Below are positions 19,104-19,609 of a stretch of 64,000 nt of DNA, piece by piece; position 1 is the stretch's first letter, and each line of letters starts with the position of its first letter. The stretch covers positions 4,739-68,738 of the forward strand of contig JBAZWO010000002.1 in NCBI GenBank assembly GCA_041660305.1, written 5' to 3'. The notes below the pieces were generated by a model. The model searched no databases, was not told the origin of the DNA, and worked only from the letters and a program-made list of their open reading frames with translations. The stretch comes from Patescibacteria group bacterium. Its GTDB lineage: Bacteria > Patescibacteriota > Patescibacteriia > UBA9570. The translations under genes and the position numbers were made by a program.

Positions 19104-19609
19104 GAATCACAGATGTCACAGATAAATACTGATGACACCTTTTACTCAACCAGAACAAAAATTGAAACATACCAAGCCTCAACTTTTGCCCAGTGTAAAT
19201 GACCGTGTATTGCCGTGTTACCTTCTTGGCTTAACGTACAATGAATATGAGGTTTTCCAGCACGGATTTCACCGGTGCCGGATAGTTCAAATGGTTGTTT
19301 GAATTCTTGTAAAATATCTTGCTTGGCGTCTGATTTTTTCATATTACTAATACAGCATTTGTCTGCCGCACCAATAACCGAAACAATTGCACCAGCTTGA
19401 ACATTATTATTTTTCAATTCGTCCTCAAGAGATCTCATTATTTCTTGACCGGGTTGAATTGTAAATTTTAGTAGTTTCATAGTTTTTTAAAATAAAAATA
19501 TATGTTACGCAAAACTATAATATAGCACACTAGGCCTAAATGCAAGCTAAATTAAAGCATTGTGTATTTATCAGTGCTATCAGAAATTTATCTGTGTAAT
19601 CTGTGATTC
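19104..19609. mobile_element. family C element: GAATCACAGAT terminal inverted repeats flanking a PPC-domain gene and its promoter
   Basis: Left arm 19104-19139 is GAATCACAGATGTCACAGATAAATACTGATGACACC. The reverse complement of the right arm (19561-19609) is GAATCACAGATTACACAGATAAATTTCTGATAGCAC... No transposase is present. Confidence 0.55.
19142..19480 (-). CDS. PPC (DUF296) domain protein
   Basis: 112 aa. SGTGEIRAGKPHIHCTLSQEGNTAIHGHL is typical of PPC/DUF296 domains. A candidate promoter TTGCAT-17-TATTAT lies upstream. Confidence 0.65.
   Translation of the reverse strand: MKLLKFTIQPGQEIMRSLEDELKNNNVQAGAIVSVIGAADKCCISNMKKSDAKQDILQEFKQPFELSGTGEIRAGKPHIHCTLSQEGNTAIHGHLHWAKVEAWYVSIFVLVE

Follow-up and report, generated by a model that had tools for sequence, protein, structure and literature searches.

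A single gene encoding a PPC/DUF296 domain protein lies between two inverted repeats immediately downstream of atpC, in a 64-kb stretch of the genome of a Patescibacteria group bacterium (contig JBAZWO010000002.1; the whole stretch is referred to below as the window). How did this gene come to be enclosed, and what are the repeats? The genomes of candidate phyla such as the Patescibacteria are small and are thought to be poor in mobile DNA. A preliminary description of the 506-bp unit, made from the sequence alone, regarded it as a cargo-carrying miniature inverted-repeat transposable element (MITE) or, alternatively, as a gene inserted into the loop of a hairpin. In our estimation, with a probability of roughly 0.55, the unit is an inverted pair of a dispersed 46-nt module that forms an ancestral slot, provided with its own promoter and a changing occupant, and it belongs to a multi-phylum gene-in-hairpin class that usually holds a GxxExxY/PDDEXK_3 nuclease.

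The unit downstream of atpC and its 46-nt module

The two repeats are named the forward arm (next to atpC) and the reverse arm (distal). The unit and its immediate surroundings contain the following features:

19566–19611, minus strand: forward arm, a 46-nt module reading TAGAATCACAGATTACACAGATAAATTTCTGATAGCACTGATAAAT (nhmmer E 5e-13)
19488–19545, minus strand: promoter block (TTGCAT at 19545–19540, 17-nt spacer, TATTAT at 19522–19517, extended −10 TGCTATATT)
19142–19480, minus strand: PPC/DUF296 gene, intact, 112 aa (PF03479, E 4.5e-14)
19102–19143, plus strand: reverse arm, the same 46-nt module (nhmmer E 4e-11, model positions 1–43)
19053–19083, plus strand: terminator of a convergent 720-aa orphan gene, a GC-rich hairpin with a T-run (terminator scan), outside the unit

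The tip of the arms, GAATCACAGAT, is found in the window at positions 19104 (+), 19609 (−), 29114 (+), 62346 (+) and 62449 (−). When one mismatch was allowed, six matches were obtained against 0.65 expected, and none of 100 shuffled sequences reached this number (0/100). The identical 11-nt tips and the approximately 30 of 36 shared positions of the two arms, reported in the preliminary description, were confirmed, with one gap in the alignment; in a global alignment the arms of the atpC unit are identical at 34 of 46 positions. A module profile was built with nhmmer from 15 arms, taken from the window and from related contigs. All 15 align as a single 46-nt profile (pairwise identity of 31–42 of 46 positions), which is represented in the window by five full copies (E 1e-10 to 1e-13) and one partial copy; both arms of the atpC unit match it with E values of ~1e-11 to 1e-13. 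The consensus of the module is T(T/A)GAATCACAGAT-nnCAC(A/T)GAT-AAA-ATGCT-GATGACAC(T/A)GATAAAT, i.e. four xxCAC(A/T)GAT units with GAT-to-GAT spacings of 9, 10–11 and 9 nt.

The first three bases of the forward arm are the TAG stop codon of atpC (the complement of 19609–19611). The preliminary description had this arm ending exactly at the stop codon; the contact is real, but the arm overlaps the stop and contains all three of its bases. At the inner end of the reverse arm the module is cut short, two bases away from the stop codon of the PPC gene, which is compatible with a breakpoint inside the arm. Between the profile-defined arms there are 422 nt. The terminator that precedes the reverse arm was also correctly noted, at a distance that we place at ~19–21 nt from the T-run (17 nt in the preliminary description).

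Three further features of the window were assigned to the same module:

62344–62451, plus strand: empty hairpin, composed of inverted modules at 62344–62388 (+) and 62406–62451 (−)
29112–29157, plus strand: solo module within pheT, in frame, encoding RITDYTDKYTDYTDK as part of the B3_4–B5 interdomain linker
37950–37981, plus strand: partial module within truB (nhmmer E 4.5e-4), adjoining a GTAG palindrome at 37912–37942

The empty 104-bp hairpin with the same termini (62346–62449), already recognised in the preliminary description, is built of this very module. The module pair (from 62344) begins 2 nt past the stop of an mgsA-like AAA+ ATPase gene; the hairpin folds with an energy of −36.8 kcal/mol (z −6.6), and an identical copy is present in a metagenome contig (L142). 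The forward arm of the atpC unit resembles the arm at 62346 (+) and the distal arm resembles that at 62449 (−), with a 96% match of the latter to 62427–62451; the atpC unit and the 104-bp hairpin thus share the same polarity relative to the gene that each of them follows.

The copies in pheT and truB had been overlooked. The pheT copy, which has 26 nt identical to the forward arm, causes no change of length relative to solved PheT structures. A length insertion was rejected as an explanation, since the linker is not lengthened, and the copy seems to have overwritten the linker and not simply to have been inserted into it (a protein search with the PheT fragment returned nothing at E 1e-30). 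In truB (37507–38217), the GTAG palindrome and the partial GAATCACAGAT-family module together constitute an in-frame insertion of ~24 aa (37906–37990): TruB residues 134–161 correspond to 4 residues in 1sgv, and the Pfam match to TruB_N falls into two separate stretches.

As described previously, exactly one intact gene is present between the arms, together with the promoter-like TTGCAT-17-TATTAT (19545–19517, minus strand). A short 5′ leader joins the promoter block to the PPC start codon. A simple promoter scan did not call TTGCAT-17-TATTAT, whose −35 hexamer matches at 3 of 6 positions. Within the window and all of the fetched loci, the promoter block is restricted to the window locus and one related contig (L217), which indicates that the two blocks are orthologous; a general genome motif was rejected, as the block is specific to the atpC locus.

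Searches with the PPC protein identified 70 homologues of about 112 aa, mostly in candidate-phyla genomes. The preliminary description had proposed to check whether PPC paralogs are similarly flanked: in eight contexts (63–79% identity), where the neighbours include dCTP deaminase, SecDF and tRNA genes, no arms were found. Judging from these contexts, the PPC gene is not tied to the arms. It is also absent from the site after atpC in all of the relatives examined. The complete 506-bp unit was found solely in the same organism (L001, L002), with no second copy in the window, the fetched loci or the public collections searched.

The atpC junction in related genomes

Using AtpC homologues, the atpC junction was compared with those of L216, L217, L218, L219, L220 and L224. 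AtpC identity to the window is 68–70% for L216, L217 and L218, 55% for L219 and L220 (Kerfeldbacteria) and 57% for L224. By AtpD and AtpC identity, the window genome branches as the sister of (L218,(L216,L217)), with L219 and L224 outside. The forward arm follows atpC in four genomes, i.e. in L216, L217, L218 and the window, and is ~80% identical among them, whereas AtpC is only about 70% identical. No module was found after atpC in the outgroups L219 and L220, where a hexapeptide-repeat protein gene is convergent after a 12-nt gap and is followed by RmuC, or in the 118 nt that remain before the contig end in L224.

In L217, atpC is followed by the forward arm, a GC-rich terminator, the promoter block, two open reading frames (ORFs) of 131 aa and 261 aa, and a complete reverse arm. 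Comparison with the window unit (blastn) revealed three homologous blocks separated by unrelated interiors: (i) the end of atpC with the forward arm (79%), (ii) the promoter block (46 of 60 positions identical, 77%; L217 3625–3684) and (iii) the reverse arm (32 of 39). Neither ORF has a family match, and for the 261-aa ORF the PADLOC and PHROGs collections gave only faint protease/LmuA-like matches. In L216, a solo forward arm is located 10 nt past the atpC stop codon and is followed by a convergent 110-aa gene, while L218 carries a degenerate forward arm with an embedded TAG stop, followed by a convergent glycosyltransferase gene.

Given the order of kinship and the shared blocks, parsimony makes the arm–promoter–slot–arm frame ancestral to all four genomes, and the pair after atpC would go back to the ancestor that the window genome shares with its three relatives. 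On this reading, the arms stayed resident at the atpC site while the interior was exchanged: the slot holds the PPC/DUF296 gene in the window and a pair of unrelated ORFs in L217, and it is empty in L216 and L218, which have lost the distal arm. The evidence from this locus favours a moving interior, although whole units may also move. No filled/empty pair was found among close strains.

A small element nested in another was also observed at this site: the forward arm of L217 (3541–3580) is split by a 42-nt GC-rich hairpin.

The first alternative is that of a non-autonomous transposon (MITE) which captured the PPC gene with its promoter and inserted as one 506-bp unit after atpC. Several features of a MITE are indeed present, namely terminal inverted repeats (46-nt arms with identical 11-nt tips), small size and many copies (hairpins of 97–112 bp, copies in related contigs), and a nested gene that is not a transposase. 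Moreover, the same arms bound the empty 104-bp element, gene-containing units of equal size occur in other phyla (see below), and the PPC gene is missing from the site in the relatives. Against this, the unit has neither a transposase nor a target-site duplication, as had been noted before; among seven paired elements, six lack such a duplication, and only the 104-bp hairpin is flanked by AATA, in AT-rich sequence. The forward arm and the promoter block are older at the site than the PPC gene, the reverse arm is truncated by the 3′ end of the gene, and the arms with their passenger were not encountered at more than one locus or genome. No parent insertion sequence for the arms was found; the GxxExxY genes between similar arms, described below, are a candidate. 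The lack of a duplication and of a second copy, the PPC homologues without arms and the frame of L217 favour a gene in a loop over transposed cargo, and we regard insertion of the whole unit as improbable. Of the cargo-carrying MITE, the inverted arms of a hairpin element enclosing a gene and its promoter are therefore retained, but not the transposition of the PPC unit as a whole; the other possibility raised at that time, a gene inserted into a hairpin loop, fits better, since L217 has the same frame with other genes. In L216 and L218 the arm occurs without symmetry, which the preliminary description had named as a finding that would speak against its proposal.

A metagenome scan for the arms was also analysed. 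It yielded ~80 loci, mostly chance matches, with clear family members in low-GC contigs, several of which originate from the same sample as L142. Hairpins of 97–112 bp are present in L176, L161 and L169. Solo forward arms were identified in L168, where the arm includes the TGA of the gap gene and is followed by a GTAGAGACGC palindrome, and in L195; L181 carries a decayed partner arm. All six clear solo copies (pheT, truB, L168, L195, L216, L218) are in the sense orientation relative to the gene that they follow or occupy. In this Patescibacteria clade the module exists in three forms: sense-oriented solo copies (at or over a stop codon, or in frame within a gene), hairpin pairs of ~100 bp and gene-filled pairs.

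Since sense-oriented solo modules after gene ends are common, the arms of the atpC unit might also be two independent solo modules, one after atpC and one after the convergent 720-aa gene, with the PPC gene merely lying between them. On the plus strand, the arm at 19102 indeed reads as a forward module, and the stop codon of the 720-aa gene precedes it by 70 nt. However, the terminator separates this gene from the arm, and the gene is absent from all of the relatives, while L217 has the same frame and no convergent gene beyond its reverse arm (the next gene has the same direction as atpC). A chance pairing of this kind seems unlikely to us, and we retain the ancestral slot as the preferred explanation.

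The 720-aa orphan ORF (16871–19033) is situated between the unit and a hexapeptide-repeat protein gene and shares 49 nt with the end of the upstream gene. It has no Pfam match and is absent from all five related loci. Gene turnover has a hot spot at the junction of atpC with the hexapeptide-repeat protein gene. A repeat-framed slot with a promoter, whose content differs between relatives, represents a concrete route of turnover on a small scale.

Modules in other phyla and the GxxExxY genes

Modules of this type are also present outside the Patescibacteria. The cross-phylum copies come from the metagenome scan and from an over-loose genome scan, which gave mostly chance matches. Among the matches listed, a profile trained on the clade recognised at least ~90 modules in Bacteroidota, Poribacteria, cyanobacteria and other groups; the hosts include Hymenobacter, Mucilaginibacter, Ginsengibacter, Ferruginibacter, Saprospiraceae, Poribacteria, a cyanobacterium and two metagenome-assembled genomes (one deltaproteobacterial and one of Bacillota). 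These modules share a T(G/A)(A/G)AATCACAGAT start and 9–10-nt periodic units: behind (C/T)(T/A)GAATCACAGAT come three or four GAT(T) units, 9–10 nt apart, the later units being lineage-specific. An ORF of at least 80 codons ends between −12 and +30 of the module start in 32% of cases, compared with 6% for random positions, and its stop codon is often a TGA or TAG within the module. In Hymenobacter, hairpins span the region from the upstream stop codon to the downstream ATG (263 bp in L076 and 179 bp in L096).

Hidden Markov models were used to search all six-frame ORFs of the fetched DNA for GxxExxY proteins. In 1.4 Mb of loci fetched by DNA pattern alone, seven TIGR04256 (GxxExxY)/PF13366 (PDDEXK_3) genes were detected (L107, L214, L066, L062, L024, L051, in which the gene is frameshifted, and L169), each of them no more than ~110 nt from a module. 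In five of the seven, a forward module in the same orientation lies just upstream of the gene, and an inverted arm follows the gene in L051, L062 and L066. The Hymenobacter locus L051 has 52-nt arms, 96% complementary and 510 nt apart, which extend from an upstream TAG to a downstream ATG; this geometry is the same as that of the window unit. In L169, which derives from the same metagenome as L142, a GxxExxY gene is associated with arms of the clade type.

A reciprocal test was performed with three GxxExxY genes picked by protein alone (viral contigs). All three are located between inverted periodic arrays, one with GTCTGAATC...GATTCAGAC tips and two with a CACGAAAAG-type unit. The gene-in-array architecture is conserved and the sequence of the unit is variable.

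Some of the loci deserve separate mention. GxxExxY genes with inverted arrays of other units (CACGAAAAG or ACGAAGGAC) were observed in L226 (1461–1879), L227 (1221–1758) and L024 (7400–7900). In L214 (450–1150) and L225 (1300–1950), GxxExxY gene-in-hairpin units lie in or next to type I restriction-modification genes, and in L214 hsdS-like C-terminal repeats are present on both sides of the unit.

No solved structure matches the GxxExxY protein by sequence, and searches of PADLOC and PHROGs gave only faint Cas4-like matches. PDDEXK_3 has been listed as a family of unknown function with multiple lateral transfers (PMC3424549). A literature survey of the arm sequences, of MITEs in candidate phyla and of the mobility of PDDEXK_3/GxxExxY genes yielded nothing relevant, and no paper on the arm–GxxExxY association was found in the part of the literature covered. 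The arms of the window unit are of the kind found in these loci (inverted, 9–10-nt periodic, starting at the upstream stop codon), whereas the nested gene is PF03479 (PPC) and not TIGR04256/PF13366. The unit appears to belong to a gene-in-hairpin class that is apparently undescribed, and its occupant is not the canonical one.

Could the arms instead be operator arrays for the enclosed PPC protein, i.e. parts of a self-regulating gene? The JGI name of this protein is "predicted DNA-binding protein", and periodic units at helical spacing would suit a multimeric DNA binder. Nevertheless, the eight other PPC contexts are devoid of arms, the same arms surround other genes, either unrelated ones (L217) or GxxExxY genes, and arms occur far from any PPC gene. 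The PPC protein was rejected as the arm binder because PPC genes elsewhere lack arms, and we consider self-regulation highly improbable.

RNA folding, likeness to known systems and other repeats

In read-through RNA from atpC, the minimum-energy fold pairs both arms in a ~37-bp stem that loops out the PPC ORF. It was considered whether the stem could be an immobile structure evolved in place, with a role in the atp operon as terminator, insulator or RNase III site (with the other copies resulting from convergence or gene conversion). The position of the arms at stop codons, their strand bias, the stability of the hairpins and the retention of the forward arm in four genomes (~80% identity, compared with ~70% for AtpC) would all agree with such a function. 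On the other hand, near-identical copies exist at unrelated loci and inside pheT and truB, no U-run follows the stems, and there is neither an Rfam family nor any pair-specific compensatory change. An intrinsic terminator was rejected, since the stems are AT-rich, ~40 bp long and without a T-run, and the terminator scan calls only the separate hairpin at 19053. A search of Rfam 15 detected only a tRNA in the window and nothing in 13 module-bearing loci. Taken together, these points make a stem evolved in place an improbable explanation of the dispersed module.

A scan of viral sequences for the arm gave three chance matches inside coding sequence, and hence no phage association. A DnaA box or IHF site was rejected on reading the sequence (TTATCTGTG does not fit TTATCCACA, and WATCAANNNNTTR is unmatched).

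Returning to the ancestral slot, the following mechanism can be proposed. A multimeric protein may bind the periodic units. The obvious candidate is the GxxExxY nuclease; this or another trans-acting factor would recognise the units and drive either the spread of the arms or insertion into the hairpin loop. In read-through RNA, the stem formed by the arms might loop out the nested gene and insulate the host operon, in the manner of the Correia repeats cut by RNase III, and may allow an insert between operon genes to be tolerated or processed. The nested gene would be expressed from its own promoter.

Several observations weigh against the slot and its link with the GxxExxY nuclease. No mobility event was observed directly and no target-site duplication occurs consistently, and lateral exchange, instead of common ancestry, might account for the frame that the window and L217 have in common. 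The arms pair no better with their own partner than with the arms of other elements (37.4 compared with 37.7 pairable positions), so that covariation, of which no pair-specific case was found, gives the RNA stem no support. The cross-phylum matches were selected by a pattern that requires GAATCACAGAT, and therefore give no measure of how general this tip is. A GxxExxY gene with clade-type arms was found only in L169, a metagenome contig of 1.2 kb whose affiliation is unproven, and no GxxExxY ORF is present in the 64-kb window. Finally, with a strict module definition the enrichment of GxxExxY genes has p = 0.07, so the GxxExxY case rests on adjacency and on the reciprocal sample of three loci.

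The arm–GxxExxY link suggests a testable role for the nuclease as the active partner of hairpin elements. We tentatively extend it to a bolder and distinctly less probable proposal: the GAATCACAGAT arms may delimit undescribed, cross-phylum selfish gene-in-hairpin elements, with inverted periodic arrays that fill precisely the space from a stop codon to the following gene. Their autonomous form would encode a GxxExxY/PDDEXK_3 nuclease recognising the arms or the hairpin loops, with empty hairpins and solo arms as relics and the loop as a slot for the capture and exchange of other genes (PPC here, two ORFs in L217). If true, this would provide the first function for a large nuclease family of unknown role, and would show one way in which genes are turned over in the reduced genomes of candidate phyla.

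The module was also compared with known repeats. Like the Correia elements of Neisseria (Correia repeat enclosed elements, CREE), which are MITEs, it is short, AT-rich and multicopy, with terminal inverted repeats that fold into a long hairpin, and it is mostly intergenic, near gene ends; both can carry promoters. The inverted repeats of Correia elements are cut by RNase III in Neisseria transcripts (PMC10969869). In contrast, the window element has no target-site duplication and no parent insertion sequence with matching ends, its arm is an array of four periodic units that also occurs solo, and the atpC pair encloses a complete gene.

Similarity to repetitive extragenic palindromic (REP) sequences and the REPIN hairpins, which are mobilised by REP-associated tyrosine transposases (RAYT), is seen in a short module that occurs singly or as inverted hairpin pairs, just after stop codons, with long residence. 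However, the module starts with T(A/T)GAATC, is not palindromic and lacks a GTAG head, and no RAYT gene was seen in the scanned part of the window ORFs. A separate GTAGAGACGC...GCGTCTCTAC repeat of the window, described below, is much more REP-like than the module.

In-frame Rickettsia palindromic elements have been described (PMC10969869), and the copies in the essential genes pheT and truB (in the latter as the ~24-aa insertion), in which the frame remains open, resemble them. They differ in sequence, size and host phylum; furthermore, most copies of the module are intergenic and the pheT copy adds no length.

A fixed position and orientation after a housekeeping gene, ends made of several repeated units that resemble binding sites, and a variable interior are shared with the Tn7-like transposons found downstream of glmS. 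Unlike these, the window unit is much smaller and has no tns genes, 5-bp duplication or TGT termini.

Intervening sequences of 23S rRNA contain an ORF in the loop of a processing stem that is formed by flanking inverted repeats, and this stem lets the insert be tolerated. The likeness lies in a gene carried in the loop of a long inverted-repeat stem within a host transcript. The host in the present case is a protein-coding operon junction, and excision or processing is only putative.

Apart from the module, three other families of small repeats were distinguished in the window. The second family comprises the REP-like GTAGAGACGC...GCGTCTCTAC palindromes with a GTAG head (13705–13735, 29635–29663, 32203–32231 and 37912–37942), of which one is intergenic and three are in frame, in pheT, gyrB (both encoding TPRRGVST) and truB. 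The third family, of ~50 nt, has the form CCTACCTCACCTCCC...CCTCCTCTCCTCAAAGGAGAGGAGG (7341–7400, 21505–21541, 32490–32542, 37448–37508 and 61058–61099); one copy starts at the gyrB stop codon, and a part of the sequence resembles an anti-Shine-Dalgarno sequence. The fourth family consists of hairpins of the CCCTTTCCCCT-loop-AGGGGAAAGGG type (7446–7478, 35631–35660 and 61012–61041). The small hairpin repeats of the window thus belong to no fewer than four families, with some copies in frame within pheT, gyrB and truB, which amounts to a repeat load in a reduced genome. In addition, a 657-aa ORF (32688–34661) encodes nine MopE-type metal-binding motifs (PF11617), with matching tandem repeats in the DNA.

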